A stretch of DNA of 64,000 nt from the IMG/VR virus record IMGVR_UViG_3300037743_000091. The stretch is one strand, 5' to 3'. Every line of letters starts with the position of its first letter. Within the stretch, counting starts at the first letter, position 1. Below the pieces are notes generated by a model. The model was not told the origin of the DNA and did not search any database. It worked only from the letters and a program-made list of their open reading frames with translations. This document shows positions 6,474 through 59,667 of the stretch, one piece after another. The translations under genes and the position numbers were made by a program. Source of the DNA: a virus (taxonomy: Duplodnaviria; Heunggongvirae; Uroviricota; Caudoviricetes).

Positions 6474-8516
6474 TCAAGAGACGACGGTGGCAACGTCAGC
6501 GAGGCCCCACCGAGACCCCACGGATGCCTCGACTGCCAGCGGCACGTCCAGACGACACCCGAGACGTTCCAAGAGCTTGTGTGGATTGATCATTCGCTGC
6601 ATGGCCCGACCGATACAGCGCTGCCAATCGTCAATCGGAACCTCCACGACCAGCGAGTCATGCACCGTTCCGACGATCCGTACCCGTGGCACCGGGTTCC
6701 CGAACTGACCTCCGATGTCGGCGGCAGTGAGTTGCATGATGTCGGACGCGAACGACTGAACAGGGGAGTTGATCGCCTGACGTTCAGCCTGAGCGACCAG
6801 GTATTCGTCACCGCCCAGGGCATCCTCCAGGCGCCGCACTCGACCAACTGGGGAAGTCACGAACCCATCGCGACGAACTCGACGGCTCACGGCCATGTGC
6901 CACTGCTCCATACCCTCCCAACGCTCGAAGAAGGCGTTTCGCATCGCTACGGCCTGCTCCAGGGTGAGGAGCACGCCGTACGAGGACTCCGCGTAGTTCA
7001 CGAAACCGAAAGCCTCTTGGCCGTAGAGGAAGCCGAAGTTCGCGGCCTTCGCTTGCTGACGCTCTAGCGCCGTGACTTCTTCCGGAGATTTCCCGGTGAC
7101 TTCGGCTGCCATCAACCGGTGAAGGTCGTCCCCGTGTTGATACGCCTCGATCATCGGGGTACAGCGTGCGATAAACGCAGCAGCTCGAAGCTCAATCTGG
7201 GAATAGTCGATCTCCGCGATGTAGTACCCCGGCGTCGGAATGAACGCGGGTTTGAGAGCCTTCGTCACCTGTTGGAGATTCGGCTCAGAACTGGACAATC
7301 TTCCTGTACTAACCCGACCCACGTTGTACTTAGCGTGGATACGAGATTCCGGGCTGACCAGATCCATCCACGAGCGGAGGAATTCCTGCTGCTTTGATGC
7401 CTGTCGGAGGACGAGGAGCTTTGAGGCAATCTCCCGACCCTCCCGCTCCTGGCGCTTGAGAACCGTCTTGTTCCACTGGGGAATACCCTTCCTTGTCAGC
7501 GCGTCTACCCGGAGGTCTCCCTTCTCCACCGCCTGGGCCGTCCACGCGCGGAACCACTTCGAGGTAGGGGCGAAGGAGGGGTCACCAATTGAATTTTCAA
7601 CTTCATACCGCGCTACGAGGTCCGAGAATTCCTGCTCTTCTTCCTGGCTCAGGGATTCCAGCCGGTCGTGTACCCATTCTTGGTCTAGCCGGAGCCCCTG
7701 GACTTGAACGTTCGTCAGGTTCCGGAGCATGGGCATGACGCACTCGACGGTGAGGTTTCCGAGCCGGATTCCTTGGCTCGCGTCCGGGTCTTCGTCCGGG
7801 TCGAGTCCATCGGCTAGCCATAGGTCTCGTTGCTGTGCGAGGTACAGAATCCACGTCCAGTACGTGTCTCGTGCGGCGTAGAGTCCAAGCTGGATCAGCG
7901 GAGCACGCTCAGCCGCTCCCGGAGACGAGAGGTCGAAGTCGTCCCAGCGCTTCACGTTGAACCGGCGGGGTACGCACTCCTTGAGCTTCGTGCTGCTGTT
8001 CTCGTCCAGCAGGTGCTCCGCGACCATCGTGTCCCACGCCAGGAACGGGCTCAGGTCGATTCCCGTATGCGCCGCGATCCATCGCACGTCGAACGGCCCG
8101 TTATGCGCGATCAGCGGTGCCTCGGTCTCCTGCATCGCAATAGCGAATCGGCGCAGGATTTCGCGCCACTCCCCGAACCAGGGGCCTTTCTTGTGGCTCA
8201 GGGGAATGAGCCACGTGTGTGCGTTCATTTCTCCGCGCCGAGGCACCGTGAGCGATAGTAGGGCGACCCGAGCACCCGGGGCGAACTCGTTAAGCCCTGT
8301 GGTTTCGAGGTCGAAAGACACGTGACTAGCTGATCGGACCGATTCCAACGCGAGGTCGATCGTGTCATCGTCAGCCCAGCTAACGAGGGTGGCGTCAAAG
8401 CCGGGAAGTCCCGCCGCCTTGACTTCCCGCGCGTTATTCAGCAATTCCAGGGGTCGGATCATCCACTTCTCCACGTAGTAGAGGAGGAGGCCCCGAAGGA
8501 CCTCCTCCGCGTTCAC
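6474..8516 (-). CDS. DNA polymerase I (family A) with 3-prime-5-prime exonuclease domain
   Basis: Motif B (RQQAKAANFGFLYGQ) and motif C (VHDSLVVEV). Exo motifs in the N-terminal half. 680 aa. Confidence 0.9.
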   Translation of the reverse strand: MNAEEVLRGLLLYYVEKWMIRPLELLNNAREVKAAGLPGFDATLVSWADDDTIDLALESVRSASHVSFDLETTGLNEFAPGARVALLSLTVPRRGEMNAHTWLIPLSHKKGPWFGEWREILRRFAIAMQETEAPLIAHNGPFDVRWIAAHTGIDLSPFLAWDTMVAEHLLDENSSTKLKECVPRRFNVKRWDDFDLSSPGAAERAPLIQLGLYAARDTYWTWILYLAQQRDLWLADGLDPDEDPDASQGIRLGNLTVECVMPMLRNLTNVQVQGLRLDQEWVHDRLESLSQEEEQEFSDLVARYEVENSIGDPSFAPTSKWFRAWTAQAVEKGDLRVDALTRKGIPQWNKTVLKRQEREGREIASKLLVLRQASKQQEFLRSWMDLVSPESRIHAKYNVGRVSTGRLSSSEPNLQQVTKALKPAFIPTPGYYIAEIDYSQIELRAAAFIARCTPMIEAYQHGDDLHRLMAAEVTGKSPEEVTALERQQAKAANFGFLYGQEAFGFVNYAESSYGVLLTLEQAVAMRNAFFERWEGMEQWHMAVSRRVRRDGFVTSPVGRVRRLEDALGGDEYLVAQAERQAINSPVQSFASDIMQLTAADIGGQFGNPVPRVRIVGTVHDSLVVEVPIDDWQRCIGRAMQRMINPHKLLERLGCRLDVPLAVEASVGSRWGLADVATVVS

Positions 8517-8995
8517 CAGTTCTGATGCCAGTTAATACCCACTCGGCAATCGAGGCAGATACCGTGGCGAGCCCTATTTGTCATGCGCTCACGGAAGAAC
8601 ATGTTCGGGCATGAGCGGCACCGCCCGACCCACTTGTACATCTGCATCCCCTCCTCCTTGGTCACGACGACGGACGCCTCCCCACTCCCGCCCAACTCGC
8701 GGTGCTTGCGCTTCCACACGGAGTCATGCCCGTGCCTGCTCCCACCGACCAGGGCGTGAGCGACCTCATGCGTCATCGTGTCGAAGATCTGTTCCGGGGA
8801 CATGGTGAGCATTGCGCGCTGGCTGTAGGTGATCCGGTAGACGCGCCCGAACCACTCATGGGTACTTCCCAGACGGCGCACACCGGTGTGCCACCCGACG
8901 CTGACGTACTCCTCGCACCCCTGCTCGCGCAGCAACTCCCCCGTACGCTTGAACAGGTTGTCCACGGTAACGGGGGTCATGGTGGCGATCGTCAT
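8513..8995 (-). CDS. SprT-like zinc metallopeptidase
   Basis: HEXXH motif MTHEVAHAL plus C-terminal Cys-rich zinc ribbon. ATG with GGAGGACAC RBS directly after a promoter element. Confidence 0.6.
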   Translation of the reverse strand: MTIATMTPVTVDNLFKRTGELLREQGCEEYVSVGWHTGVRRLGSTHEWFGRVYRITYSQRAMLTMSPEQIFDTMTHEVAHALVGGSRHGHDSVWKRKHRELGGSGEASVVVTKEEGMQMYKWVGRCRSCPNMFFRERMTNRARHGICLDCRVGINWHQNW

Positions 8996-9014
8996 GTGTC
9001 CTCCAGGTTCGTTG

Positions 9015-9056
9015 TGCTGACGTACGTAACATTACCATACCCGAAGAGAGCCGCAA
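9015..9056 (-). promoter_or_regulatory. Conserved promoter/operator element (minus orientation): -35 TTGCGG, 16 bp spacer, -10 TAATGT, then TACGTACGTCAGCACAAC
   Basis: Same element family. 8 nt upstream of the RBS of the SprT-like gene. Confidence 0.55.
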
Positions 9057-9176
9057 TCCCGAGGGTGTGGGACTGCGGCTCTCCACGATGCAACAGAAGC
9101 GAACGAAAGGAGTTCTACGAGACGTGACGAGAGAAGTAACGGCTCACGGAGAGCTTAGCTCTCCCTGCTCCCCCTG

Positions 9177-10829
9177 TCACTTCCCCGCCTGATCTCCCCG
9201 GATGTAGGCGAGCAAGGCGGTCTCGATCGACTCGCGCGTCAGGTGCGCCTTGCGAATCACCTCGTCTACCGATCCGGGGACCTCCACATTCCAGAACGTC
9301 ACGGATGGTCCTTTCTGGCCAAGACGGTTCAACCTGTCCCGCGCCTGCACCACGTCATCGCGTCTTTCGGACAATGAGGTAAATACAGCGTGCGAGGCAG
9401 ACACAAGTTCGTTCACGGCCAACGAGAGGGTTCGCATCTGGGCTACCAGGATGATTCGCTGCTTCTCGTCTGATCCGAACCGCTTACGTAGGGCCTCCCG
9501 TTCCTTCGGTGGCGTGTCACCCGTAATCGTCATGACCTCGCTTTTCGGCTCGTAATAACGAAGTCGATCAGCAAGTGCCGCGACTTCCTGACGGAAGTGC
9601 GCGAATACGACCACTCGTCGCTGCCCGGCAAGGGTGTCCATGACCGTACTCGTTGCGGCGTCCACCTTCGAGGACCCGATGATCCGTGTTACCCCGTTGT
9701 CATCGGGCAGGTAACCGCTCGTGATCTGGCGTAGGCGCATCATCTGGGCGAGGCGGTTCGGTACGGAAGCGAACGTTCCGTCAGACATGACTGTGGCAAG
9801 TTGCCCCTTCATATCGTCATAGGCACGCTGTTCGGCTGGTGACAGATGCACGGGAACCGTGATGTCCATAACCGGTGGTAGGTCGAGTGCGTCAGCCTTT
9901 CGGACCACGATGGAGTTGGCTTCCATGACCTTTTGCATTTCCCCGAGGTTCTTGTACGCGATGACCTGACGACCCTGCCATCCTCCGAATACCCCATACC
10001 GATCCTGGAATGCCCCGAAGGACATGGGTTTACGTCCGCCCGGAAGTCGGGAATCTGGGCTGTAGAACGCCTCAGGTTCGAGGAATCGCCACTGCGCCCA
10101 GACGTCCATAGGTGAGTGAGGCATAACTGTTCCAGTGAGGATCAGACGCCGGGGACACAGCCTGCCGATCCGCGCGGCGGCGCGGGATACGTTCGAGGAG
10201 GCGGACTTGAGCCGGTGGCTCTCGTCCACGATCACTAGGTCAGGCTGAAAAATCTTGATCGCATCAACCACCTTGTCTGTACTCGTGCGTGAGGCCGAGA
10301 CCTGCCTCTTGTGGCTCAGGGAGTCCAACGAGACCACTTCCAGCACTAGTCCGGGGGCTGACTGCCAAGGACCCTCGTAGAAGTCCCCCCAGTGAGCCCT
10401 CCTGGCGCGTGAAGTACTGGAGACCGCCTCACCCGTACGTGTGACCCCCGCCCATGAGATCGCTCGCCGTAGCCCCTCTGACGGGTCGCTGGACGATGCC
10501 CGACGTCCCGCTAGGGCTTCGGCGCGCTGGAGCACGGTTCCCCCCAGCGCTTCGGCCCACACCGCGACCCCGTGGGAGGCGAACCCGGAGGTCTGTCCCA
10601 CCCAGGAATCCAGGGCAACTACGGGTGCGAGGACAAGAACCCGGATCGATCGTTCCGCCTTGAGCGCCAAGAGCGAGGCGTAGTCGATAGCGACAGCCGT
10701 CTTCCCCGTCCCCGGTTCGAGGAGCAGGGCACAGCGCCCTCGTGTCTCGATGATCCTACGTAGAGCTTGCTTCTGGTGTTCGAACCGGACCGGCCCGCGC
10801 GGCCGGTACTGAATCCGCTTTTCTGTCAT
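9177..10829 (-). CDS. SNF2/DEAD-box-like helicase
   Basis: Walker A (PGTGKTAV) and DExH (VIVDESHRLK). 550 aa. Confidence 0.8.
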   Translation of the reverse strand: MTEKRIQYRPRGPVRFEHQKQALRRIIETRGRCALLLEPGTGKTAVAIDYASLLALKAERSIRVLVLAPVVALDSWVGQTSGFASHGVAVWAEALGGTVLQRAEALAGRRASSSDPSEGLRRAISWAGVTRTGEAVSSTSRARRAHWGDFYEGPWQSAPGLVLEVVSLDSLSHKRQVSASRTSTDKVVDAIKIFQPDLVIVDESHRLKSASSNVSRAAARIGRLCPRRLILTGTVMPHSPMDVWAQWRFLEPEAFYSPDSRLPGGRKPMSFGAFQDRYGVFGGWQGRQVIAYKNLGEMQKVMEANSIVVRKADALDLPPVMDITVPVHLSPAEQRAYDDMKGQLATVMSDGTFASVPNRLAQMMRLRQITSGYLPDDNGVTRIIGSSKVDAATSTVMDTLAGQRRVVVFAHFRQEVAALADRLRYYEPKSEVMTITGDTPPKEREALRKRFGSDEKQRIILVAQMRTLSLAVNELVSASHAVFTSLSERRDDVVQARDRLNRLGQKGPSVTFWNVEVPGSVDEVIRKAHLTRESIETALLAYIRGDQAGK

Positions 10830-15387: not shown

Positions 15388-15409
15388 TAAGGTTACGAAC
15401 GTCAACAAC
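15388..15409 (+). promoter_or_regulatory. Degenerate copy of the promoter core (TAAGGTTACGAACGTCAACAAC)
   Basis: Two substitutions relative to TAATGTTACGAACGTCAGCAC. Upstream of the Sak4-like gene. Confidence 0.3.
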
Positions 15410-17081: not shown

Positions 17082-17153
17082 GCTGGTCTGGCTGATCGGT
17101 TAGGTGCTCGCCTGCAAAGCGAGATCAAGCGGGTTCGAGTCCCGCCACCAGTT
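17082..17153 (+). tRNA. tRNA-Cys(GCA), tentative; D-arm atypical
   Basis: T-arm GCGGG-TTCGAGT-CCCGC. Anticodon arm CTCGC-CTGCAAA-GCGAG. Acceptor 6/7 paired. Confidence 0.4.
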
Positions 17154-17154
17154 C

Positions 17155-17226
17155 GGCCCGTTCGTCCAGCGGTCAGGATTCCGGACCTTCACTCCGGCGA
17201 CAGGGGTTCGACTCCCCTACGGGCTA
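17155..17226 (+). tRNA. tRNA-Glu(TTC), with C at position 33
   Basis: Acceptor GGCCCGT/ACGGGCT. D-arm GTCC..GGAT. Anticodon arm CCGGA-CCTTCAC-TCCGG. T-arm AGGGG-TTCGACT-CCCCT. Confidence 0.5.
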
Positions 17227-17227
17227 C

Positions 17228-17299
17228 GCGGTATTGGTCTAGTGGTTAAGGCACCAGGCTTCCACCCTGGAGACCCGGGTTCGATTCCCGGATACCGCT
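17228..17299 (+). tRNA. tRNA-Gly(TCC)
   Basis: Acceptor GCGGTAT/ATACCGC. Anticodon arm CCAGG-CTTCCAC-CCTGG. T-arm CCGGG-TTCGATT-CCCGG. Confidence 0.75.
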
Positions 17300-17300
17300 C

Positions 17301-17373
17301 GTCGCGTTCGTCTAGTTGGCCAGGACGCCGGTCCCTCACTCCGGAAACACGGGTTCGAATCCCGTACGCGGTA
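17301..17373 (+). tRNA. tRNA-like gene with an atypical, apparently 9-nt anticodon loop; identity unresolved
   Basis: Acceptor GTCGCGT/ACGCGGT. D-arm GTCT..AGGA. T-arm ACGGG-TTCGAAT-CCCGT. Anticodon region GCCGG-TCCCTCACT-CCGG. Confidence 0.4.
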
Positions 17374-17383
17374 CTGTCGAGAA

Positions 17384-18131: not shown

Positions 18132-19202
18132 ATGGTTCACGAAATCACTGACACGGACGCCATGTTTAGCGTCCGCGAAATGCCGTGGCATCGTCTCGGA
18201 ACGGTCCTCACGGACTACCCGACGCGCGAGGAGGCGCAGAAGATCGCCCACGACTGGGAGCCCGTGACGGCCCCGGTGTTCCGCCGCGTGGTCGGCGTCC
18301 ATACCCACGGGAACGAGTGCTACAGCGACTTCGGCTCCGGCGACCTGGAGTGTGAGCAGGCGGAGGGTCCGTTCTCCCGCTTCGAGGAGATCGAGGGACA
18401 GCAGGAGGTCGTCCGCTCGGACAACGGCCACCACATCGGCGTCACGAACGACACCCTCGGGATCGTCACGAACGATGAGATGTACGACATTGCGGAGGCT
18501 GTCCAGGGGCTCAGCGGGGACGTGATGTACGAGACCGGCGGTACCCTTCGCGGAGGCCGTCAGGTGTGGCTCCTCCTGCGCCTCGCGGAGCCCCTGGAGA
18601 TCAAGGGCGATCCTCGCGGCGCGACGATGCAGTACTTCGCCCTCCAGAACAACCACGACGGCGGGGGTTCGTTCCGGGGTCAGGCGATCAACACGAGGAT
18701 CGTGTGCGCGAACACGTCCCGCATGGCCGACATGGACGCCCGCGCCCACGAGACGGAGATCGTCTTCCGGCACACGAAGAACGTGGCGGAGCGCGTCGAG
18801 GAGGCGAAGCAGGCACTGGCCATGTGGCGTACCTCGATCAACGAGTGGCAGCTCTTCAACGAGCACCTGATCTCGTGCAAGATCACGCGGGAGCAGCGGG
18901 AGGAGTTTGTGGAGCGGTTCTTTCCGATACCGCCCACGGGTGTTTCCAAGCGCATGATGACCAACATCGAGAACGACCGGGGGAACCTGCGGGAGATCTT
19001 CGCAGGGGTCACCAGCGAGGGGATCGAGAACACGGCCTACGGCCTGGTTCAGGGTGCAGTGGAGTTCTCCCAGCACTACCGCGCGACCCGGGGCAAGAGT
19101 GACATGGCGCGCAACGAGAACCGTTTCCGCCGGTCCGTCCTGGACAAGGACAAGCTGGTCCGGGGCGCGGCGAAGCTGGCCAAGGAGATCGCCCTCGTGT
19201 GA
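18132..19202 (+). CDS. DUF932 (phage/plasmid-related) protein
   Basis: YFALQNNHDGGGSFRGQAINTRIVCANT block matches the DUF932 R.VC.N signature. 356 aa. GAAAGGAA RBS. Confidence 0.5.
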   Translation: MVHEITDTDAMFSVREMPWHRLGTVLTDYPTREEAQKIAHDWEPVTAPVFRRVVGVHTHGNECYSDFGSGDLECEQAEGPFSRFEEIEGQQEVVRSDNGHHIGVTNDTLGIVTNDEMYDIAEAVQGLSGDVMYETGGTLRGGRQVWLLLRLAEPLEIKGDPRGATMQYFALQNNHDGGGSFRGQAINTRIVCANTSRMADMDARAHETEIVFRHTKNVAERVEEAKQALAMWRTSINEWQLFNEHLISCKITREQREEFVERFFPIPPTGVSKRMMTNIENDRGNLREIFAGVTSEGIENTAYGLVQGAVEFSQHYRATRGKSDMARNENRFRRSVLDKDKLVRGAAKLAKEIALV

Positions 19203-20190: not shown

Positions 20191-21099
20191 ATGGCCGAAG
20201 AATCGTTCTACCTGTTGGAACACAAGAATCCACACCTCGATCAGTACGGGGAGGAACGTCGATACGACCAAACACCGTCAGGCACTATCGTCATTCACAC
20301 GGCGGAGAACGTCGCGGATCAACTCGGGGGAGACCTCGGGGCGGAGAACGTAGCGGCCTATGTCGTGAGGCGGACGAACCACGGTTCTTATCACCGGCTC
20401 GTCGATGCTGATTCCATTATTAAGATGGCGCCTTTCGGGTACGAAACGTGGCATTGCCGTAATACCAATCCGTGGTCCATCGGTATTTCCATGGCGGTCA
20501 TGGCTGACGACTGGGATAAGTACTCGGACGATTACGTGATGCGAGTTCTCCGCAATGCGGCTCGTGCGGCAGCGGAAGCAGTTCGGGACCTTAAGAAGTA
20601 TTGGAAGGTCACAGTCCCCCTCGAACACATCACGGGATCTCAGGCGCTTGCCAAGCGCCCGGGATTCACTGGACACGGAGAGACGGACCCGACTCGACGG
20701 CACGACCCCGGCTCCGGGTTCCCGTGGGCTCGTTTCCTGAATCTGGTTCGCGAGGAACTGGGAGACGACCCGATCGAAGCGGAACCGGTCAACAACCCGA
20801 TCACTCCCGCCAAGCCCAAGCCCGCCCCGAAACCGAAGGGAACCGAATACCGCATGAACCGTCTCGACTTGCGTACCGCGCACCGTACAAAGATCTATAA
20901 CGACGATATGAAGAAGTGGCAAGGGCTGCTGCTCGCCCACGGTTACGGTCCGCGCGGTCTCGTGGAGACCACTGGACGGCCGGATGGGATCGGCGGTGCC
21001 TATACGCGGCGTGCGACGCTGGCCTTCCAGAAGAAGGCGGGTATCGAGGAGGACGCCGTGGTCGGCCCTATCACCTGGAAGAAGGCCCTGGAGGGGTAA
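20191..21099 (+). CDS. Endolysin: N-acetylmuramoyl-L-alanine amidase (amidase_2/PGRP-like) with C-terminal peptidoglycan-binding domain
   Basis: IVIHTAE ... GHGETDPTRRHDPGSGFPW amidase_2 motifs. C-terminal PG_binding_1 repeat (WQGLLLAHGY ... DGIGGAYTRRATLAFQKKAGIEEDAVVGPITWKKAL). Confidence 0.75.
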   Translation: MAEESFYLLEHKNPHLDQYGEERRYDQTPSGTIVIHTAENVADQLGGDLGAENVAAYVVRRTNHGSYHRLVDADSIIKMAPFGYETWHCRNTNPWSIGISMAVMADDWDKYSDDYVMRVLRNAARAAAEAVRDLKKYWKVTVPLEHITGSQALAKRPGFTGHGETDPTRRHDPGSGFPWARFLNLVREELGDDPIEAEPVNNPITPAKPKPAPKPKGTEYRMNRLDLRTAHRTKIYNDDMKKWQGLLLAHGYGPRGLVETTGRPDGIGGAYTRRATLAFQKKAGIEEDAVVGPITWKKALEG

Positions 21100-21314
21100 T
21101 GGCGGGACGTAATTCAACGATCCAGGATTCTTACGGAGAATCCCGGAAGAAGTTCGAGGCGTCACTGGAGTTCGGGACTCACGACTTCGTCGGCCAGTTG
21201 GCCTACGCTCGTGACCCTGCCCGTGTTCTGTACGATCGTCAGCAGGCGATGCGTCGCTCTACCATCGAGCGGGGACGTAAGAAAATCCCCATGAGAGGAC
21301 AGAACATTGAGTGA
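21099..21314 (+). CDS. Hypothetical protein (71 aa) within the lysis cassette
   Basis: TAATG overlap with the endolysin stop. GGAGGGG RBS. Confidence 0.4.
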   Translation: MAGRNSTIQDSYGESRKKFEASLEFGTHDFVGQLAYARDPARVLYDRQQAMRRSTIERGRKKIPMRGQNIE

Positions 21315-21585
21315 CTTCGTTCGATCTGCGATCCGTACGGGTGTCCCGTACATCGTCGGTGCCCTGCTCTCTTGGCTCACGGCGCGGGGGATCGATATTC
21401 CTCCGGAGGGTGAGGCGGGGCTGATCGCGTTCTTGACCGCGTTGTTCGGCGCGGTTTACTACTTGACGGTTCGGGCCCTGGAGAGTCGTTGGCCTAAGCT
21501 CGGGGTTCTTCTCGGGTCGGCTACGGCTCCGGAATACCGGGGACCGGACTCCAAGGGGGTTACCTCGAAGGAGACGCAGGACTGA
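21307..21585 (+). CDS. Holin-like membrane protein (TTG start)
   Basis: Two hydrophobic helices (VPYIVGALLSWL; LIAFLTALFGAVYYL). Directly downstream of the endolysin. GAGAGGA RBS. Confidence 0.45.
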   Translation: MSDFVRSAIRTGVPYIVGALLSWLTARGIDIPPEGEAGLIAFLTALFGAVYYLTVRALESRWPKLGVLLGSATAPEYRGPDSKGVTSKETQD

Positions 21586-21652
21586 CCCCGGCGGCTGCCG
21601 GTCCGTTATCCCACTGTTATACGGATCGGTAGTCGCCCTCTCTTGGATGTGG

Positions 21653-21673
21653 TAATGTTACGAACGTCAGCAC
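21653..21673 (+). promoter_or_regulatory. Conserved promoter core (TAATGTTACGAACGTCAGCAC), divergent -35
   Basis: Same -10/+1 block as the family. 30 nt upstream of the HicA-like gene. Confidence 0.5.
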
Positions 21674-21703
21674 AACGTACGGTACGACATCCCGGAGGGC
21701 ACA

Positions 21704-21904
21704 GTGAACAGGGAACTACGAGAACTCCTTGCGGAACTGGATAAGCAGGGGTTCAAGTACAAGGTGACCAAGAAGGGTCACGTCATGATCAAGACGGCCG
21801 ATAATAAGCCGGTGACCACGTTCTCCGGTACCCCGAGCGATATTCGTTCGTGGAAGAACAGTATAAGCCGTTTGAAGCGGGCCGGTTTCGAGGATGAGGG
21901 TTGA
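21704..21904 (+). CDS. hicA: HicA-like toxin (mRNA interferase family)
   Basis: 66 aa. LRELLAELDKQGFKYKVTKKGHVMIKT ... SDIRSWKNSISRLKRAGF follows the HicA/YcfA pattern (helix-GW-KGSH-h-h, then a C-terminal basic helix). GTG start after GGAGGG. Confidence 0.55.
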   Translation: MNRELRELLAELDKQGFKYKVTKKGHVMIKTADNKPVTTFSGTPSDIRSWKNSISRLKRAGFEDEG

Positions 21905-21915
21905 AAGGAATAAAG

Positions 21916-22176
21916 ATGGAAGAGACCCGGGAGCAGTTCAACGTCACCCTTACTCTCAGTGGTGAGTTGAGTGACCGGGAGGTGGGGAGGCTGATTGACG
22001 GTCTGGTGGGCATGTCTCCCGCCATCGCACATGAGGGCGAGATCGTCGTCACCGTGACCGCAATCAATCACTCCGAGGCTCTGGTTAAGGCCGGAATAGA
22101 AGCGAAGAGATTCATGGGGGACATCGTTCAGGCCGTCATCCTCACTACCGAAGAATTCGATAAGGACAACGAGTAG
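21916..22176 (+). CDS. Possible HicB-like antitoxin (UPF0150-like)
   Basis: 86 aa acidic protein immediately downstream of hicA-like gene (toxin-first order). Weak resemblance only. Confidence 0.3.
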   Translation: MEETREQFNVTLTLSGELSDREVGRLIDGLVGMSPAIAHEGEIVVTVTAINHSEALVKAGIEAKRFMGDIVQAVILTTEEFDKDNE

Positions 22177-22198
22177 GTATCGACCGAGGGAGTAACCC

Positions 22199-22534
22199 AT
22201 GATGACCGATCGCAAGAAGACAATGAGGTGGAGTGTGGTGCTCGGCGCATCACTGCTCATCTTTACCGGTGGGTGGTTCACCGGGCACAGCACTGCACGC
22301 GTCGAGAAGGTCGTCATTGAGCCCTCGGAAGCGTGCTTGGCCTCCTCGCAGTACGGGCGCGTTTACGTAGCCCGTGAGCGGCAGGAGAACCTGATCCTCC
22401 TTAATCAGGAAGAGCACAGCGACGAGAAGGTCCGTGAGTTGTTGCAGGCCAACGCGGAACGTAAGCAGAAGGCATCCGTTCTCTGGCGCTCATTCGAGGA
22501 TCAGTGCCAGGTCGATCTCCAGGAGGGGTCATGA
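22199..22534 (+). CDS. Membrane-anchored protein (N-terminal TM)
   Basis: WSVVLGASLLIFTGGWF helix. GGAG RBS. Confidence 0.45.
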   Translation: MMTDRKKTMRWSVVLGASLLIFTGGWFTGHSTARVEKVVIEPSEACLASSQYGRVYVARERQENLILLNQEEHSDEKVRELLQANAERKQKASVLWRSFEDQCQVDLQEGS

Positions 22535-22827
22535 CTCGCGTATTCAGTGATGCCGTCCTCGCAAAGTCTCGTAGTTACCTGGCCAATGGGCACGTTCATC
22601 GTGATGCCGAAGCGGAAAACATGTGGTGGGTTCAGGGTGCGGACCTCATGAACAGTCGCCCGTACCGGGTTCAGGTAGTCATGGATGGGGATCTGATCCT
22701 CACCCGAACCTGTACGTGCGAGCACGGGAAGAACGCGGGAGGGTCGGCCACGTGTTCGCACGTTGCGGCTGCTCTCATTCGTAAACAGCAGATCGACAAA
22801 GAAGGGGGTACAGCAGATGACGAGTAA
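22531..22827 (+). CDS. SWIM zinc-finger protein
   Basis: C-x-C-x11-C-x-H (RTCTCEHGKNAGGSATCSH). GGAGGGG RBS. ATGA overlap. Confidence 0.5.
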   Translation: MTRVFSDAVLAKSRSYLANGHVHRDAEAENMWWVQGADLMNSRPYRVQVVMDGDLILTRTCTCEHGKNAGGSATCSHVAAALIRKQQIDKEGGTADDE

Positions 22828-23029
22828 TAAGGGCGAAGATGAGGAGTTGCTGACTCCGGCGGAAGTGGCTCACCTGTTCCGTGTGGACGTCAAGACGGTT
22901 GCGCGATGGGCGCAGATCGGCAGAATCCCTCGCGATCAGGTGATCATCACCCTGGGCGGGCACCGCCGGTACAAGGCCCGGTTCATCCGGTCTCTGCTGC
23001 TGAGCGAGGGAGAGAATGACGCAGGATGA
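22817..23029 (+). CDS. Helix-turn-helix DNA-binding protein (excisionase/MerR-like HTH_17)
   Basis: LTPAEVAHLFRVDVKTVARWAQIGRIP motif. Confidence 0.55.
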   Translation: MTSNKGEDEELLTPAEVAHLFRVDVKTVARWAQIGRIPRDQVIITLGGHRRYKARFIRSLLLSEGENDAG

Positions 23030-23198
23030 TGTGTTGTTCCTGGTCCTGCTGATTGCGGGTTGCTTGCTCGTGGTCGGGTGCGGGATCGAACTGCTGTTGT
23101 GGATGCTCAGGGTGTCGATGCGCATGGGCGGGGGCGTGTGGCTGTGGGGCGCGACGTGCGTCGGTGCGGTCGTGTTCATGAACCATCTTGCGTGGTAA
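23016..23198 (+). CDS. Small membrane protein (60 aa)
   Basis: GAGGGAGAG RBS. Two hydrophobic segments. Confidence 0.4.
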   Translation: MTQDDVLFLVLLIAGCLLVVGCGIELLLWMLRVSMRMGGGVWLWGATCVGAVVFMNHLAW

Positions 23199-23265
23199 CT
23201 CAGGGCGTTATCTAACCGTGATGGAAGATCAGACGGATTAGGTAGCGCCCTGAGTTGTTGTGATG

Positions 23266-23286
23266 TAGTGTTACGTACGTCAGCAC
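23266..23286 (+). promoter_or_regulatory. Promoter core variant (TAGTGTTACGTACGTCAGCAC)
   Basis: Single substitution in the -10. 24 nt upstream of AAGGAG + ATG 23311. Confidence 0.45.
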
Positions 23287-23310
23287 AACGAATCACCGAA
23301 GGAGTAGATC

Positions 23311-23961
23311 ATGCAGATCTCCAAGATGAACATCGGCACCATGTACCTGGTCAACGAGCGTCGGGACTGGAAGACCTGGGGTTACGACAACAAGGCGTAC
23401 ATCCTCATGAGCCTGGAGCCGTTCGAGGAGCAGAAGCTGCGATGGTCCTCGCGTTACACCTATGCCACCGTGACCATCAACGGGACCAACTACTCTTACG
23501 GCGGTCGGCCGTGGTTGGCGACCACAGTCAGCGGCTCGAAGCTCTACCTGATGCAGCACGTTGACCCGGACACTCGGGAGCCGGTCCTGAACGAGCAGAA
23601 CGGCAAGCCGTTCCTGTCGCTCATCTCGACTCGGAGTGTGCGCGGCGAGTGGGCCGTGGCCAAGGCGGAGCAGGAGGGGGCAGTCAAGGAAAAGCAGGAG
23701 CGCAGTGACCGGGAGCGGGTAGCCTCTCAGAACCGTTGGAACCGCGCCGAGGGTATCGCGATCCGCCTCCGTTCCCTGCTCGGGCTGAACTCGAACGCCT
23801 ACCAGGTGAACACGGCCGATGTCGGACACGGGTACTCCGGGGGAGGTCCGCGCGCCATCAAGATCAGCATGAACGAGGCCGAGAAGCTGGCCGACATGCT
23901 GGGCGAAGCTCACCAGGAGATCGAAGACCTCAAGGCGGAGTTGCGCGACCTTCGCGGCTAA
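23311..23961 (+). CDS. Hypothetical protein (216 aa) with C-terminal coiled coil
   Basis: Promoter-proximal with strong RBS. Followed by a terminator hairpin. Confidence 0.55.
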   Translation: MQISKMNIGTMYLVNERRDWKTWGYDNKAYILMSLEPFEEQKLRWSSRYTYATVTINGTNYSYGGRPWLATTVSGSKLYLMQHVDPDTREPVLNEQNGKPFLSLISTRSVRGEWAVAKAEQEGAVKEKQERSDRERVASQNRWNRAEGIAIRLRSLLGLNSNAYQVNTADVGHGYSGGGPRAIKISMNEAEKLADMLGEAHQEIEDLKAELRDLRG

Positions 23962-23971
23962 CCTGTTCTCT

Positions 23972-24014
23972 CACACTGGGGCGATAACCCGTTTGTGGTT
24001 ATCGCCCCAGTGTG
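23972..24014 (+). terminator. Hairpin terminator (CACACTGGGGCGATAACC-CGTTTGT-GGTTATCGCCCCAGTGTG) overlapping the next promoter
   Basis: Perfect 18 bp stem directly after stop 23961. Its 3-prime arm abuts TAATGT of the next promoter copy. Confidence 0.5.
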
Positions 24015-24015
24015 C

Positions 24016-24036
24016 TAATGTTACGTACGTCAGCAC
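24016..24036 (+). promoter_or_regulatory. Conserved promoter core (TAATGTTACGTACGTCAGCAC)
   Basis: 22 nt upstream of AAAGGAAG + ATG 24059. Confidence 0.5.
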
Positions 24037-24058
24037 CTCACCGAACGAAAGGAAGATC

Positions 24059-24337
24059 ATGGGTCTCTTGAACGGTCTCTTCGGACTCAGCGAGCCGACC
24101 CCGGAAGAGCGGCGCAAGGCGCGGAACGACAAGCGCGAGACGCGCCGGATCGTGGGTGAGCGTGACACGGGCGAGATCGCGGACGCCACGGCGGCCGGTT
24201 CCCTGTCGATCGACGTCGAGCGTGACGGTTCCGGCGTGACGAGCAAGGCATACAACCGGCGCGGGAACTCGTGGCCCGGTCAGCGGATCTCCGAGACCCC
24301 GGCGGAAGAGCCCAAGAAGGGCAGCCTGGGCTGGTGA
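24059..24337 (+). CDS. Hypothetical protein (92 aa)
   Basis: Promoter-proximal. Basic N-terminal region. Confidence 0.5.
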   Translation: MGLLNGLFGLSEPTPEERRKARNDKRETRRIVGERDTGEIADATAAGSLSIDVERDGSGVTSKAYNRRGNSWPGQRISETPAEEPKKGSLGW

Positions 24338-24483
24338 CCGACCCGGACGACAAGCTTCTTGCTGCCCTCTCCGAGAAGGACACGTGCGTTCACTGCACGT
24401 GGGAGGTCACCAACTTCACGGAGTACGTGGAGCACCTGGCCAAGGAGCACCCGGAGCACGGGAATCCCAAGACATACGGCTGA
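24334..24483 (+). CDS. C2H2-type zinc-finger miniprotein (49 aa)
   Basis: C-x2-C-x12-H-x5-H (CVHCTWEVTNFTEYVEHLAKEH). GTGA overlap. Confidence 0.4.
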   Translation: MTDPDDKLLAALSEKDTCVHCTWEVTNFTEYVEHLAKEHPEHGNPKTYG

Positions 24484-24538
24484 ACCACACCGGAGGGGCG
24501 CATATTGCGCCCCTCCGGGCTACATGGAAGAGAGCACG

Positions 24539-25471
24539 ATGAATTCACCTACCTTGGTGATCACCAGGGGTCTGCCCGGAGCGGGAAAGGCCACGTTTGC
24601 CCGGCGCTGGGTGGACGAAGATCTGGAGAAGCGCATACGGGTTAACTACCGTGATCTTTACACGTCGATGTATGGACGGAGTAGGCCCCCTCGGGAACCT
24701 CAGAAGAACAGCGTCCGGAAGGCCCAGCACGCACAAGTTCAGGCGCTCCTGCTGAGTGGCATAAGCGTCGTTGTGGATGACGAGAACCTGGTTCTTCGGG
24801 ACGCTCGTGCTTTTGCTGACCTTGCCCTGCGTACCGGGGCTGAGTTTCAGGTGAGGGACTTTACGGATGTCTCCCTGTCGGAGTGCATTCAGCGTGACGC
24901 CGGGCGCGTGTTTTCGGTAGGGGAGCAGACGATTCGGGACCTGTACCGGCGGTACAAGTTCCCTCTGCCGAAGGTGGAGCCGACACCGCGTCGAGCCGGT
25001 GAGCGCCCGGCGTGGTACAAGCCGCATGACACCTCCGCAATCCCGACCGTCATCGTGGATCTGGACGGCACCCTGGCTCGCAACATCACGAATCGGGAGA
25101 TGTGGGGCCCCAGGTTCGAGGAGCGCGTTTACGAAGACGAGGTGAACCAGTCTGTTCTTCGGTTCATTACTGGATGGCTCATGCAGGGGTATGAACTGAT
25201 CTTCATGTCGGGGCGTGCGGAGATCTCTCGCGCTGAGACGATGCGCTGGCTCTTCGATAAGGCGGGCATCCGTGAGGATGAATACGAGCTGTTCATGCGT
25301 CGAAACGGGGATGGTCGGCACGACTATGAGGTCAAGGCCGACCTGTTCGAGGAGCACGTTCGCCCCTACTACGCGAACGTGGCCCTGGCGATCGACGATC
25401 GGAATCAGGTCGTGGATCTCTGGCGCGGGATTGGCCTGGAGTGCTGGCAGGTTCGCGACGGAGACTTCTAG
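24539..25471 (+). CDS. pnk: Polynucleotide 5-prime-kinase/3-prime-phosphatase (T4 Pnk-like)
   Basis: N-terminal P-loop kinase (TRGLPGAGKATFARRW). C-terminal HAD phosphatase motif I (VIVDLDGTLA). GGAAGAGAG RBS. Confidence 0.7.
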   Translation: MNSPTLVITRGLPGAGKATFARRWVDEDLEKRIRVNYRDLYTSMYGRSRPPREPQKNSVRKAQHAQVQALLLSGISVVVDDENLVLRDARAFADLALRTGAEFQVRDFTDVSLSECIQRDAGRVFSVGEQTIRDLYRRYKFPLPKVEPTPRRAGERPAWYKPHDTSAIPTVIVDLDGTLARNITNREMWGPRFEERVYEDEVNQSVLRFITGWLMQGYELIFMSGRAEISRAETMRWLFDKAGIREDEYELFMRRNGDGRHDYEVKADLFEEHVRPYYANVALAIDDRNQVVDLWRGIGLECWQVRDGDF

Positions 25472-31576: not shown

Positions 31577-32485
31577 ATGAATCAGGAGCGTAAGAATGTC
31601 TCTATCGGGGACGAGGAGATCGCTCGACGGAACGAGATCCTTCGTACAAGAGCGGGCTCCGAAGTATTCGGAATGGCCCTTCCTGGTACAAGCGATCAGG
31701 ACGAGATGGGTGTCTACGTCGAGACGCAGGAACAGCTTCTTGGGCTGGCCCCGTCCTCGGAGCACTACACCTTCCGTACTCAGCCGGAAGGTATGCGCTC
31801 AGGGCCGGGAGATACTGATCTGACCCTGTACTCGTTGCGTAAGTACATGCGCCTCGCGTGTGCCGGGAATCCTACGGTCCTGACGCCGTTGTTCGTGGAG
31901 CCCCAGCACGTCCTTTCTGGGACGGTGGTCGGGGGTGCTCTGCGGAACCTCGCGCCGTTCATCGTTTCCCGGCGGGCTGGGTGGCGGTTTCTCGGGTACC
32001 TGGAGAGTCAGCGTGAGCGCATGGTCGGCGGCGGTCGGCAGAGCCGAGTCCCCAAGCGTCCGGAGTTGATCGAGAAGCACGGGTATGACACCAAGTACGC
32101 CAGTCACGCCTTGCGTCTCGGACTCCAGGGAATCCAGTTGGTGTCCAGAGGCTACCTGCCGCTGCCCATGGATGAAGAGTTCTTGGAAACGTGCATGGAG
32201 GTTAAGCGCGGGGAGGTGGATTTCACCGAAGCATTGAGACGCGTGGATGTAGCACGTGAACGACTGCGGGAATGCATAGAAAACGGCACATCCCCTCTCC
32301 CGCCACAACCCAACATGCAGTACATCAATGCGTGGATGGTTCAGGCACATAAGGAGCATTGGCGGGTCGAAAGAATGGCTCGGTACATGAAGGCAGACTC
32401 CACATATCAGTCAATCCTCTTTCGTGAAGCCGCTGCGACGACTCGACTAGACCGGGACGAAACATTCAGTCTCGGTCCCCAGTAA
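31577..32485 (+). CDS. Pol-beta-superfamily nucleotidyltransferase
   Basis: GS-x9-D-x-D signature (RAGSEVFGMALPGTSDQDEMGVYVE). 302 aa. Confidence 0.55.
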   Translation: MNQERKNVSIGDEEIARRNEILRTRAGSEVFGMALPGTSDQDEMGVYVETQEQLLGLAPSSEHYTFRTQPEGMRSGPGDTDLTLYSLRKYMRLACAGNPTVLTPLFVEPQHVLSGTVVGGALRNLAPFIVSRRAGWRFLGYLESQRERMVGGGRQSRVPKRPELIEKHGYDTKYASHALRLGLQGIQLVSRGYLPLPMDEEFLETCMEVKRGEVDFTEALRRVDVARERLRECIENGTSPLPPQPNMQYINAWMVQAHKEHWRVERMARYMKADSTYQSILFREAAATTRLDRDETFSLGPQ

Positions 32486-49920: not shown

Positions 49921-51192
49921 ATGACTCACAAGCGACCCTCTCTCTCCCCAGAGGATCGACGCCCAGATGGCCCGAGACAGGTGGTCGCCGTGAGTAAGTC
50001 GAGTAACGCGGACCCGAAGGTGTTCGCCTCGCCCCTGAACACTCCGAATGACGTCGTGACGCTCGACGAGCCCACGGACATCCTGTGCAGCTACCACTAC
50101 TTCTCGGACGTGGATATGGCGCAGGTTCACGGTTGGGGGACGCGCATCATCGGGGACTCCGGGGCGTTCTCGGCGGAGACCTCCGGCAAGCCGATCGATC
50201 GTGAAAAGTTTCACGAGTGGGCAGCTAAGTGGGGTGACTCCCTGTGGTGGGTAGCGTCTCTCGACGTGATCGGAGACGCCTCAGCAACTCGCCGGAATTG
50301 GGAAGCTGCCCAAGCAGACGGCCTGAACCTCGTACCGTCGATCCACTACGGCGCGACAGTTAGCGACCTGGATTGGTACGTGGAGCAGGGCGTGGACTTC
50401 CTGGGCCTCGGGGGAATGGTCGCGTACTCCTCGGAGAAGGCGCGCCTGATGCGCTGGCTTATTCCCCTCTTCCGGCACGTTCGTGATCACGCCCCGCACG
50501 TCCGGTTCCATGGCTGGGGGATCAGTCACCCTGAGTTGCTGGACAAGCTGCCCTTCTACTCCACGGACTCCTCCGGGTTCTCCTCTGCATTCAGGTTCGC
50601 TACCTTGCGTCTGTGGGACGTGGACAAGGCACGCTTCTACACGGTGGACCTGGACGGGAAGGAACCGGCGAAGTACGCCCGACTTCTGCGTGAGCACTAC
50701 GGGATTCACTGGAAGAAGATCGCCGTATCTACTCCGGAAGTGCGCCGCGATCTCGGGCGCGTTGCCGTGAAGGCCGTTCAGCATTATGGACGGTGGCTTC
50801 GTTCTCGTCAGCAGGTGACGGCTCCACAGTCGCTCGTGGATCGGCCGGGCGCTCCGCGCCCGGCCGTCGTAATGGCGTTCCCTGGAACTGCGCAGAATCT
50901 AGCTGTGCAGCCTCCCGACGAGGGTCCGTGGCAGGTGAGAAGTGCTATGGGTAGATCTAACTCTCAGGCTGTCCACCCAGAGGGAACGGGTAGTTTGCCA
51001 CGTTCTGGAGAAGATGGGCCCATGCAAGTTGCTGCCGTGGGTCGAGATACCAAGGTCTCTTTTGTGATCGACGGACCCCGAAAAGAAGGCCCTCACGCGG
51101 TAACCGCATTTGGTGTGGGGCAAGATGCAAAGGTGCTCATTCCTCCTCCGGATGAACACTGGCCGAAAACTAACTCAGGAGAAAATCAATGA
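49921..51192 (+). CDS. dpdA: tRNA-guanine-transglycosylase-like DNA 7-deazaguanine transferase (DpdA-like)
   Basis: 423 aa TGT-fold candidate (ILCSYHYF, GDSGAFS, DFLGLGGM). Directly followed by queC/queD/queE/folE. Confidence 0.55.
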   Translation: MTHKRPSLSPEDRRPDGPRQVVAVSKSSNADPKVFASPLNTPNDVVTLDEPTDILCSYHYFSDVDMAQVHGWGTRIIGDSGAFSAETSGKPIDREKFHEWAAKWGDSLWWVASLDVIGDASATRRNWEAAQADGLNLVPSIHYGATVSDLDWYVEQGVDFLGLGGMVAYSSEKARLMRWLIPLFRHVRDHAPHVRFHGWGISHPELLDKLPFYSTDSSGFSSAFRFATLRLWDVDKARFYTVDLDGKEPAKYARLLREHYGIHWKKIAVSTPEVRRDLGRVAVKAVQHYGRWLRSRQQVTAPQSLVDRPGAPRPAVVMAFPGTAQNLAVQPPDEGPWQVRSAMGRSNSQAVHPEGTGSLPRSGEDGPMQVAAVGRDTKVSFVIDGPRKEGPHAVTAFGVGQDAKVLIPPPDEHWPKTNSGENQ

Positions 51193-58094: not shown

Positions 58095-59060
58095 GTGACC
58101 CTTAAGAATCCCACCCAGGATGAATCCCTCGAAATGATGGACGACATCGAGGAAACCATCATTGGACCGGCAGTAAATCGGGCAGTTCGTACCGTACTGA
58201 CGACGTTGGTTGACTCAGCAATCGCTGCTCTTCGTGCAGCTCCCTCACCGGAGTCAATTGTTGCGGCTGCTGAACCCTGGCCTCTTACTGCTGCCCAAGT
58301 CGCGGGATGGTGGGAAGACGAGGTCTCGATGGAAGTCCGATCCGCCATCGAGGAAGCATGGAGGTCCGCTTACGTCGGGCGGTCCACTGCTCCCCCGTCA
58401 TCGATCGCGCTGGACGCCCTCGTACTGTTCGTCACCCAGGTTATTGATCGTCTGGTACACGGACTTACTCCCCCCCTGCCTGATAACGCGATGGATCTTG
58501 TACGGGTATCGATCGTCTCCGGTACGGCTCTTGGATGGAGTACGAATCAAGTGGCCGAAGACATCGCTGCTCGGTTGGATTGGGATGTCCCAGATCGTTA
58601 CTGGCAACGCCAGCACCAGGAAGCTACTGAGCAACTGGACGCCCTACTGGATACGTACGGTCCCCCGGGAACTCCCGCTCGTGAGGCTGCTCGCACTGGG
58701 GGAGACCCCACCGTGACAGCCTGGCAGAATCAACGCGCGTCAGCACGAATCGAACTGGACCGTACTGAGTCGTTCTGGCGAATGCGTGCGACGCGGATTG
58801 CCCGTACGGAGTCCACCTCCGCGTACAACTCAGGTGCGCTAGCGGCTCTGGCGGACGAGGGGGTAACGAATAAGCGTTGGGTGGCCACCCGGGACTCTCG
58901 CACTCGCCCTACACACATCCGTGCTGACGGGCAGGTGCGTCCCCTGGTCGAGCCCTTCGACGTAGGAGGTCGCTCTCTCCAGATACCCGGCGACCCGTCC
59001 GGACCAGCTAGAGAAATAATCAACTGCCGATGCACAATGATCGCTGACGATGTCGATTGA
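58095..59060 (+). CDS. MuF-like minor capsid/head morphogenesis protein
   Basis: C-terminal VRPLVEPFDVGG ... INCRCTM signature. 321 aa. GTG after GGAG. Confidence 0.75.
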   Translation: MTLKNPTQDESLEMMDDIEETIIGPAVNRAVRTVLTTLVDSAIAALRAAPSPESIVAAAEPWPLTAAQVAGWWEDEVSMEVRSAIEEAWRSAYVGRSTAPPSSIALDALVLFVTQVIDRLVHGLTPPLPDNAMDLVRVSIVSGTALGWSTNQVAEDIAARLDWDVPDRYWQRQHQEATEQLDALLDTYGPPGTPAREAARTGGDPTVTAWQNQRASARIELDRTESFWRMRATRIARTESTSAYNSGALAALADEGVTNKRWVATRDSRTRPTHIRADGQVRPLVEPFDVGGRSLQIPGDPSGPAREIINCRCTMIADDVD

Positions 59061-59173: not shown

Positions 59174-59246
59174 TTCCTCGGTAGCTCAACAGGTAGAGCA
59201 CTGCCCTGTTAAGGCATTGGTTGTAGGTTCGAGTCCTGCTCGGGGA
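59174..59246 (+). tRNA. tRNA-Asn(GTT)
   Basis: Acceptor TCCTCGG/TCGGGGA. D-arm GCTC..GAGC. Anticodon loop CTGTTAA. T-arm GTAGG-TTCGAGT-CCTGC. Confidence 0.75.
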
Positions 59247-59249
59247 GCT

Positions 59250-59336
59250 TGGTAAGGCCAGCCGATGGGCGGCGGCAACTGTCTTGAAAACAGTCTGCGG
59301 GTGATACCGCGTGTGGGTTCGACTCCCACCCTTACC
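59250..59336 (+). tRNA. tRNA-Ser(TGA) with long variable arm
   Basis: Acceptor GGTAAGG/CCTTACC. Anticodon arm ACTGT-CTTGAAA-ACAGT. 19 nt variable arm. T-arm GTGGG-TTCGACT-CCCAC. Confidence 0.7.
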
Positions 59337-59340
59337 GCTC

Positions 59341-59421
59341 TGCTGTTCACGCGACTGGTGTCGCACGCGGACTGTAAATCCGTTGCCCTTGGGCGTGCCA
59401 GGTTCGATCCCTGGGAGCAGC
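59341..59421 (+). tRNA. tRNA-Tyr(GTA) with long variable arm
   Basis: Acceptor GCTGTTC/GAGCAGC. D-arm GCGA..TCGC. Anticodon loop CTGTAAA. T-arm CCAGG-TTCGATC-CCTGG. Confidence 0.7.
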
Positions 59422-59425
59422 ACCG

Positions 59426-59500
59426 AGCACCTATGGGGAAGTCAGGAGTTCCCGTCTCCCTGTCAAGGAGAAGATCGCCGGTTCAAATCCGGTTAGGTGC
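59426..59500 (+). tRNA. tRNA-Asp(GTC)
   Basis: Acceptor GCACCTA/TAGGTGC. Anticodon arm TCTCC-CTGTCAA-GGAGA. T-arm GCCGG-TTCAAAT-CCGGT. Confidence 0.7.
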
Positions 59501-59508
59501 GCTTTTCA

Positions 59509-59580
59509 TTCCGCATTCGTCCAACGGGCAGGACCCCGGATTTTGGTTCCGGAAATCTAGGTTCGAATCCTAGATGCGGA
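59509..59580 (+). tRNA. tRNA-Gln(TTG)
   Basis: Acceptor TCCGCAT/ATGCGGA. D-arm GTCC..GGAC. Anticodon arm CCGGA-TTTTGGT-TCCGG. T-arm CTAGG-TTCGAAT-CCTAG. Confidence 0.75.
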
Positions 59581-59667
59581 ACTGTTATTGCCCATTTCGG
59601 TTACCCTGGCCCTAGTTGTGATACGTGGCTGGCGATCGGGCCGCACGGGACCTCCAAGGAGGAAACC

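Follow-up and report, generated by a model that had tools for sequence, protein, structure and literature searches.

Within a 64,000-nucleotide (nt) stretch of Caudoviricetes DNA from the IMG/VR virus record IMGVR_UViG_3300037743_000091 (hereafter the window), two small adjacent genes appear to form a compact, phage-borne toxin-antitoxin-like module of the HicA type, organised as a type II system, whose putative antitoxin has lost its DNA-binding domain. We put the probability of this reading at about 0.6. The first open reading frame (ORF), ORF A (21704..21904, plus strand), begins with GTG and encodes a HicA-like protein of 66 amino acids (aa), a putative RNase toxin, while the second, ORF B (21916..22176, plus strand), begins with ATG 11 nt after ORF A and encodes an acidic protein of 86 aa, the putative antitoxin. 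Both have a ribosome-binding site, GGAGG at 21692-21696 (seven nt upstream of ORF A) and AAGGA at 21906-21910 (five nt upstream of ORF B). A TTG at 21901 overlaps the ORF A stop codon and would give an alternative ORF B of 91 aa, but we take the ATG at 21916 as the conserved start because homologues begin MEETREQF or MEDTREQF. These gene models, including the possible TTG/ATG overlap and the acidic 86-aa partner, agree with an earlier reading of the same DNA (the original prediction), which had regarded the pair as a HicA toxin followed by a protein in the position of a HicB antitoxin. Chance ORFs are ruled out for both genes by the existence of homologues and by the ratio of nonsynonymous to synonymous substitution rates (dN/dS), which in comparisons with related metagenomic phage contigs was 0.20 for ORF A and 0.10-0.12 for ORF B, indicating purifying selection.

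Judged by its sequence relatives and predicted fold, ORF A is a member of the HicA superfamily that retains a catalytic-type histidine, as the original prediction had proposed from its residue pattern. It matched the PADLOC HicA-like model (E=2.3e-7) and phrog_2089 (E=3.5e-15); no NCBIfam HicA match was found for it. The PADLOC model was matched by all 54 family members (best E=4.8e-11), and Pfam HicA_toxin, the only Pfam family to recur among these relatives, by 18 of the 54 (E<=0.01, best 1.3e-5). Searching phage genomes with tblastn (E<=1e-3) returned homologues of ORF A in 61 phage records. Microbacterium phages account for 41 of these, and the annotation "HicA-like toxin" is attached to most of the Microbacterium matches listed. 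A profile search recovered 529 relatives, many of them chromosomal in Streptomyces, Nocardia, Cellulomonas and Dermatophilus, and nearly all labelled "hypothetical protein", while pattern scans of IMG/VR with ORF A and ORF B returned nothing. Membership of the superfamily is reinforced by two independent links: the HicA of Gordonia phage Agueybana matches the hidden Markov model (HMM) of the ORF A family (E=4e-10), and NCBI names the homologue on plasmid pVAPN1571 a HicA family toxin. In the Gordonia phages MossRose and NHagos (L011 and L013, 2001-2192) a HicA-like ORF with a GSH motif is unannotated and a gene has been called over it on the opposite strand; the equivalent ORF of phage Wooper is annotated.

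The AlphaFold model of ORF A has a mean predicted local distance difference test score (pLDDT) of 85.7 and consists of a helix (residues 3-15), three strands (18-21, 27-30 and 36-40) and a second helix (47-60), an alpha-beta-beta-beta-alpha order that is that of the HicA fold. The best Foldseek match in the PDB was 1WHZ (probability 0.93, template modelling (TM) score 0.59), which we take to be the Thermus structure used to define this fold. Across 54 sequences His26 is invariant and Gly25 occurs in at least 90%, and the usual P-x-H segment is replaced by a family signature, G-T-P-S-D-x-R-S-x-x-N. Alignment with hhalign places His26 on the catalytic H23 of Escherichia coli HicA (P=1e-3), and Gly25/His26 on G28/H31 of gp91 from phage Adephagia (P=5e-4); each alignment is weak (P of about 1e-3) and the two are mutually consistent. 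The retained histidine disposes of the possibility, raised with the original prediction, that ORF A is a plain double-stranded RNA-binding domain without the catalytic residue.

ORF B differs sharply in charge (isoelectric point (pI) 4.45 vs 9.82 for ORF A; 17 Asp and Glu residues vs seven Lys and Arg) and has very few recognisable relatives. It had no match in Pfam, PHROG, NCBIfam, PADLOC or PDB sequences, and a tblastn search of phages with ORF B returned nothing. Close homologues number two or three among billions of proteins, and an exhaustive phmmer search of 1.84 billion representatives returned a single one; phmmer matches to repeats in two giant proteins were judged compositional. A link to bacterial proteins emerged from the gene neighbourhood of ORF A relatives. 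At three bacterial loci the products of the gene just 3' of the HicA-like gene are mutually homologous, and their first 90 residues faintly resemble ORF B. Scanning one genome per GTDB species with a 13-sequence alignment added 14 further loci, giving 17. We built an HMM from the 13 bacterial N-terminal domains, with no phage sequence included, and searched the six-frame translation of the window (1010 segments), where ORF B was the sole match (E=3.6e-6; next best E=1.8) and covered positions 3-88 of the 89 in the model. A profile-profile comparison of the phage and bacterial N-domain sets by hhalign gave a probability of 97.2% (E=2.9e-11, 81 columns), with pairwise identities between ORF B and the bacterial N-domains of about 17-25%. 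On these comparisons ORF B is homologous to the N-terminal domain of the bacterial partner.

The partner lies directly downstream of the HicA-like gene in all 17 GTDB genome loci, which span more than 10 genera, and two of these loci that were outside the HMM training set also match the model (E=1e-18 and 1e-28). It occupies the same position in three further metagenomic modules of prophage-like character. In Rhodococcus and Prescottella plasmids 32 records match the partner; the full module is present on the two that were inspected, and the match to the other 30 concerns the partner alone. Bacterial partners are 140-260 aa long and consist of an acidic N-domain followed by a C-terminal Pfam HTH_17 domain, helix-turn-helix (HTH) families being the only ones matched in a domain search of eight full-length partners. 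The charge difference holds throughout, with pI values of 9.8-11.9 for the toxin family and 4.05-5.15 for the partner N-domains. ORF B ends exactly at the end of the N-domain (TTEEFD) and has no DNA-binding domain; thus, it corresponds to the partner minus its DNA-binding half.

Two observations on individual modules may be recorded here. On the Prescottella equi plasmid (pVAPN1571; L041, 2160-2926) the HicA-like gene and partner are both present (the pair WP_172685820 with WP_233279765), and public annotation describes the partner simply as a "helix-turn-helix domain-containing protein". The HicA-like ORFs of Cellulosimicrobium marinum and Oerskovia sp. M15 (L029, 3001-3915; L030, 3001-3700) carry a frameshift shortly before the LKRAGF end of the C-terminal helix, and in L030 the partner has a frameshift as well, which could reflect either decay of the toxin or an indel error in the assembly.

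The position that the original prediction had assigned to a HicB is therefore occupied by a cognate partner, in that a homologue of its family stands downstream of the HicA-like gene in every bacterial locus examined, but this partner is not recognisably HicB. The sequence searches and the predicted fold both speak against that identity: the AlphaFold model of ORF B (pLDDT 70.7) has a ferredoxin-like beta-alpha-beta-beta-alpha-beta topology. A remote or rearranged relationship with HicB may nevertheless exist, since the partner family gave a very weak alignment with one actinobacterial HicB (E=0.12).

Several features of the pair follow the pattern of type II modules, namely the toxin-first order, the combination of a basic toxin with an acidic partner, and the joining of the presumptive binding domain to a DNA-binding domain in bacteria. 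Antitoxins usually comprise a binding domain and a DNA-binding domain, and toxin-antitoxin modules are common next to integrases and on plasmids. Two small co-oriented genes are here paired across unrelated contexts and mobile elements (genome loci, metagenomic modules, plasmids and a phage lineage). The modules often lie beside integrases of the tyrosine recombinase type on chromosomal islands, or on plasmids, and some have no integrase nearby; together with its presence in a phage, this distribution suggests a mobile two-gene module. The 11-nt spacing, the common promoter motif (described below) and the purifying selection are compatible with co-expression of the two genes. The integrase neighbourhoods and HTH_17 domains could alternatively mean that the partner is a regulatory or excision-type DNA-binding protein of integration modules, with a ferredoxin/ACT-like sensor and an excisionase-type HTH_17, that ORF B is its remnant, and that the two proteins have no toxin-antitoxin relation. 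We give this very little credence, since the module also occurs on plasmids and away from integrases, the phage version is conserved despite having no HTH, and an excisionase would not be expected to pair strictly one-to-one with a HicA-like gene.

As a toxin-antitoxin-like module, the pair would operate as follows. By analogy with HicA, ORF A would be a histidine-dependent RNase toxin that cuts RNA without the ribosome. ORF B, produced from the same transcript, would represent the toxin-facing N-terminal domain of the two-domain partner and would bind and block ORF A. Loss of the HTH in the phage would fit the replacement of an autoregulated toxin-antitoxin promoter by the phage promoter motif. 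The phage could benefit through controlled decay of host RNA, through competition with other phages, or through neutralisation by ORF B of a related host toxin. We infer the RNase activity and toxicity of ORF A, the binding and neutralisation by ORF B and the benefit to the phage.

The last of these benefits could also be the function under selection, with ORF B acting in counter-defence as an antitoxin decoy against a related host HicA-like toxin released during infection and ORF A merely captured alongside it. Phage antitoxin mimics are an established strategy, as exemplified by Dmd of phage T4, and the module is widespread in the chromosomes, prophages and plasmids of Actinomycetota, the likely host range. 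The phage copy has moreover lost the DNA-binding domain and kept the binding function alone. However, ORF A is also under purifying selection, has all invariant residues and is not decaying, and the case for cross-neutralisation is weakened by the low identity between ORF B and the bacterial N-domains. We regard this explanation as decidedly improbable.

A number of results weigh against the toxin-antitoxin reading. With respect to ORF A, the match to Pfam HicA_toxin (PF07927; E=0.09, 13.3 bits) falls under the cut-off of 27, the Foldseek E-value for 1WHZ is 0.22 (a poor value being usual for such a small domain), and alignment to single HicA sequences by hhalign reached low probabilities (22-32%). 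The family profile gave only weak HicA matches among PDB sequences (E=0.56 and 1.2), in which phmmer searches with ORF A, P0040 and P0097 found no HicA, and we found no published experiment on this HicA subfamily in the literature. For ORF B, the structure model (pLDDT 70.7) was built on a two-sequence alignment; the predicted topology differs from the beta-beta-beta-alpha-beta partial RNase H fold of HicB; and hhalign of the partner family against E. coli HicB and Adephagia gp90 gave probabilities of at most 1%. Because ORF B is not HicB-like, its neutralising role is argued from the gene neighbourhood only.

Further counterevidence comes from phages that carry the toxin fold by itself. Four inspected Microbacterium phage loci, from lytic phages, have a lone HicA-like gene between opposite-strand genes, and a partner homologue is absent from the whole Franklin22 genome, so the fold can persist without a partner. 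In addition, phage LeBron has an orphan HicA-like gene of another subfamily, and its overexpression was not toxic (PMC13148394). These observations fit an explanation in which the phage makes direct use of ORF A as an RNA-binding protein or RNase with a HicA fold, for instance in the turnover of host or phage transcripts, and needs no antitoxin; ORF B would then modulate ORF A or have an unrelated role rather than neutralise it. Among the 61 phage records with a homologue, the four inspected Microbacterium phage loci all retain the invariant histidine and have no partner nearby, and an antidote to host toxicity is unnecessary during lytic infection; both points are in line with such direct use. 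Conversely, the partner is always adjacent to the HicA-like gene in the phage lineage and at every bacterial and plasmid locus examined, the phage retains exactly the half that does not bind DNA, under strong purifying selection (dN/dS of about 0.1), and the complementary charges suit a neutraliser. We therefore consider direct use unlikely, and continue to prefer the toxin-antitoxin-like module.

Beyond this preferred reading, the partner N-domain could represent an antitoxin family not described before, ferredoxin/ACT-like in fold, that neutralises a HicA-type RNase by a mode unlike that of HicB, which would add a HicA context beyond the 14 catalogued. Such a family would be distributed over actinobacterial chromosomes, prophage-like elements and plasmids, with the phage keeping only the binding domain, either to restrain its own toxin while infecting or to disarm a host copy. 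We advance this broader proposal tentatively, at somewhat less than even odds.

Because HicA toxins are familiar and actinophage annotation already uses the label "HicA-like toxin" routinely, a HicA homologue in a phage is on its own ordinary. The novelty lies in the partner, an unnamed acidic domain of about 90 aa. At all bacterial and plasmid loci examined it goes together with one HicA subfamily, and it is found here minus the DNA-binding half. In the records examined, the full-length partner carries the public labels "helix-turn-helix domain-containing protein" or "hypothetical protein". Should it prove to be an antitoxin, it would bring a new antitoxin fold into the HicA repertoire, and partner genes now labelled as HTH or hypothetical proteins (including that of the Prescottella equi pVAPN plasmid) could be annotated, with the adjoining hypothetical toxin genes, as toxin-antitoxin pairs. 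The phage pair would then also be a natural minimal construct (66 + 86 aa) for studying inhibition of a HicA RNase without HicB. Phages with a solo toxin and the phage with toxin and partner offer a matched comparison for the role of small RNases in phages.

The module resembles known HicA systems in several respects and departs from each of them in its partner. In class 1 hicAB loci of the Gerdes 2024 classification, the gene after hicA encodes a small HicB (67-97 aa) that has no DNA-binding domain; the locus of the Planktothrix phage PaV-LD is one of them (PMC10865869). The window pair shares the toxin-first order, the small proteins (66 and 86 aa), the tight spacing, the partner without a DNA-binding domain and the location on a phage, but its partner has no HicB sequence signal and a predicted topology other than that of HicB. 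Class 3 loci encode a HicB with a C-terminal HTH, as in E. coli HicAB and the pair of Gordonia phage Agueybana (PMC10865869). The bacterial and plasmid relatives of the module are similar to this class, since hicA is followed by a partner with an N-domain and C-terminal HTH, the Agueybana toxin belongs to the HicA subfamily of ORF A, and the partner HTH resembles that found in class 3 HicBs from actinobacteria (E=2e-5 to 8e-3 at a fixed database size of 1000). However, the partner N-domain belongs to another, unnamed family (E=44 vs Agueybana HicB, in addition to the hhalign result for E. coli HicB), and the window copy has no HTH. In terms of this scheme, the bacterial form looks class 3-like and the phage form class 1-like, with a different partner domain in both. 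None of six accessions tried appears in the accessible portion of Table S1 of that study (PMC10865869).

A second point of reference is the gp90/gp91 pair of Adephagia, for which toxicity of gp91 and rescue by gp90 were shown by experiment and G28 and H31 substitutions in gp91 were tested (PMC11373665). Like the window pair, it combines an actinophage HicA-like toxin with a small acidic antitoxin, and its glycine and histidine align with Gly25/His26. The two differ in that the Adephagia antitoxin is encoded upstream (class 2), has the HicB fold and is expressed in the lysogen of a temperate phage, and gp91 belongs to another HicA subfamily that is absent from the ORF A tblastn matches at E<=1e-3. 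Closer in toxin sequence are the genes annotated by SEA-PHAGES as "HicA-like toxin" in Microbacterium phages such as Eden, Armstrong, Franklin22 and Dismas, which belong to the family of ORF A (38-48% identity, E down to 7e-12) and share its invariant residues. Unlike the window gene, which heads an operon together with a partner, these genes are solitary, lie on the strand opposite to their neighbours and have no partner.

Transcription of the module is likely to be governed by a motif that recurs in the window. The 21-nt sequence TAATGTTACGWAYGTCAGCAC has 13 copies with two or fewer mismatches vs 0 expected from 100 shuffles, plus one degenerate 14th copy. Two copies are on the minus strand (1980-2000 and 9014-9034), and those on the plus strand start at 15388, 17749, 21653, 23266, 24016, 27731, 37472, 40068, 41984, 61916, 62431 and 63571. 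All 14 are oriented toward the next gene, whose ribosome-binding site and start codon follow at a distance of 15-40 nt, and the genes behind them are replication, lysis-adjacent and structural alike. The copy in front of ORF A (21653..21673, plus strand) is exact, TAATGTTACGAACGTCAGCAC, and sits in a wider conserved block at 21637-21677. Within the motif, TAATGT forms a -10-like hexamer that is preceded by TGG in the style of an extended -10, in five copies TTGCTA lies 17 nt before TAATGT, and the palindrome ACGTACGT is contained in TAATGTTACGWAYGTCAGCAC. The position of the motif upstream of the hicA-like gene is kept in five related contigs (L001-L005) whose proteins are only 63-70% identical. 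A generic sigma-70 scan of 21000-24500 called no promoter, so that the repeated motif is the whole basis of the promoter reading. It is reasonable to regard the motif as a promoter, in which case the copies could all belong to one promoter class, or as a promoter combined with an operator for a phage regulator.

ORF A is the first gene after this motif copy, as the original prediction had stated; its further suggestion that the pair has a promoter of its own does not hold. The following copies are at 23266 and 24016, hence the unit that starts at 21653 comprises six ORFs (about 1.6 kb) and extends beyond ORF A and ORF B. All four remaining ORFs are on the plus strand. The third (22199..22534) encodes a 111-aa protein with a hydrophobic N-terminal segment and no family match in Pfam or PHROG; it is kept after the ORF A/ORF B pair in related phages and is absent from the bacterial modules. 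The fourth (22531..22827) encodes a SWIM zinc-finger protein (Pfam SWIM, E=1.2e-5) with a likely ATG start at 22531 that overlaps the preceding stop codon; the longest ORF begins at 22504, and we favour the shorter form because the homologue in relatives is 100 aa long. The fifth (22763..23029) encodes an HTH_17/MerR-type DNA-binding protein (Pfam HTH_17, E=7.8e-8), the true start of which is probably an internal ATG near 22814. We considered whether this gene is the detached DNA-binding half of the partner, which is unsupported, the match to the bacterial partner HTH reaching only E=0.35. The sixth and last ORF (23016..23198) encodes a 60-aa hydrophobic protein and is followed by the promoter-like copy at 23266-23286. 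On the other side, two lysis genes lie 5' of the motif copy at 21653-21673, an endolysin (20191-21099) and a holin-like gene (21307-21585).

With a G+C content of about 60%, the window is a fragment of a phage genome that also encodes DNA polymerase I and a primase-helicase, and its terminase shares about 58% identity with Microbacterium phage terminases. A megablast search of the region against 50,697 phage records found no close DNA relative, which indicates that the phage is new at the DNA level. The RNA-repair enzymes and nine tRNAs noted in the original prediction are present, namely a polynucleotide kinase-phosphatase (PNKP; 24359-25471), a nucleotidyltransferase homologue (31577-32485) and all nine tRNA genes. 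The RNA cleave-and-repair theme that it drew from them finds no backing in the gene arrangement. PNKP lies behind a separate promoter copy, and the T4 Rnl1-type RNA ligase found directly 5' of PNKP in L001, L003 and L004 (about 7860-10070) is missing at that position in the window, as it is in L002, which likewise has PNKP. Furthermore, in bacteria and on plasmids the HicA/partner module is present with no RNA-repair genes alongside it, and the solo genes occur in phages of other architecture. Prophage addiction, also suggested earlier, is not favoured either, given that no integrase was detected in the window by tblastn with three module-associated integrases or in Pfam and PHROG scans of the larger ORFs, which are limited, non-exhaustive tests.

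Other parts of the window and its relatives have features of interest in their own right. Four of the tRNA genes (Cys, Glu, Gly, Glu) abut at 17082-17374 with zero spacer nucleotides. A five-tRNA cluster (59175-59582) lies between two ORFs, 58095-59060 and 59497-61608, that match the N-terminal and C-terminal parts of one portal/MuF-type family (phrog_859), the longest form of the second ORF overlapping tRNA-Gln. A queuine tRNA-ribosyltransferase homologue (49921-51192; Tgt/DpdA-like, phrog_7068, E=4.5e-74) suggests that the phage DNA may carry 7-deazaguanine modifications. Finally, the DUF932 gene of the related contig L004 (564-2564) encodes 666 aa with a LAGLIDADG_3 match in the middle of the protein, compared with 356-361 aa elsewhere (18132-19202 in the window), and this enlargement is likely to be an intein or a homing endonuclease insertion.

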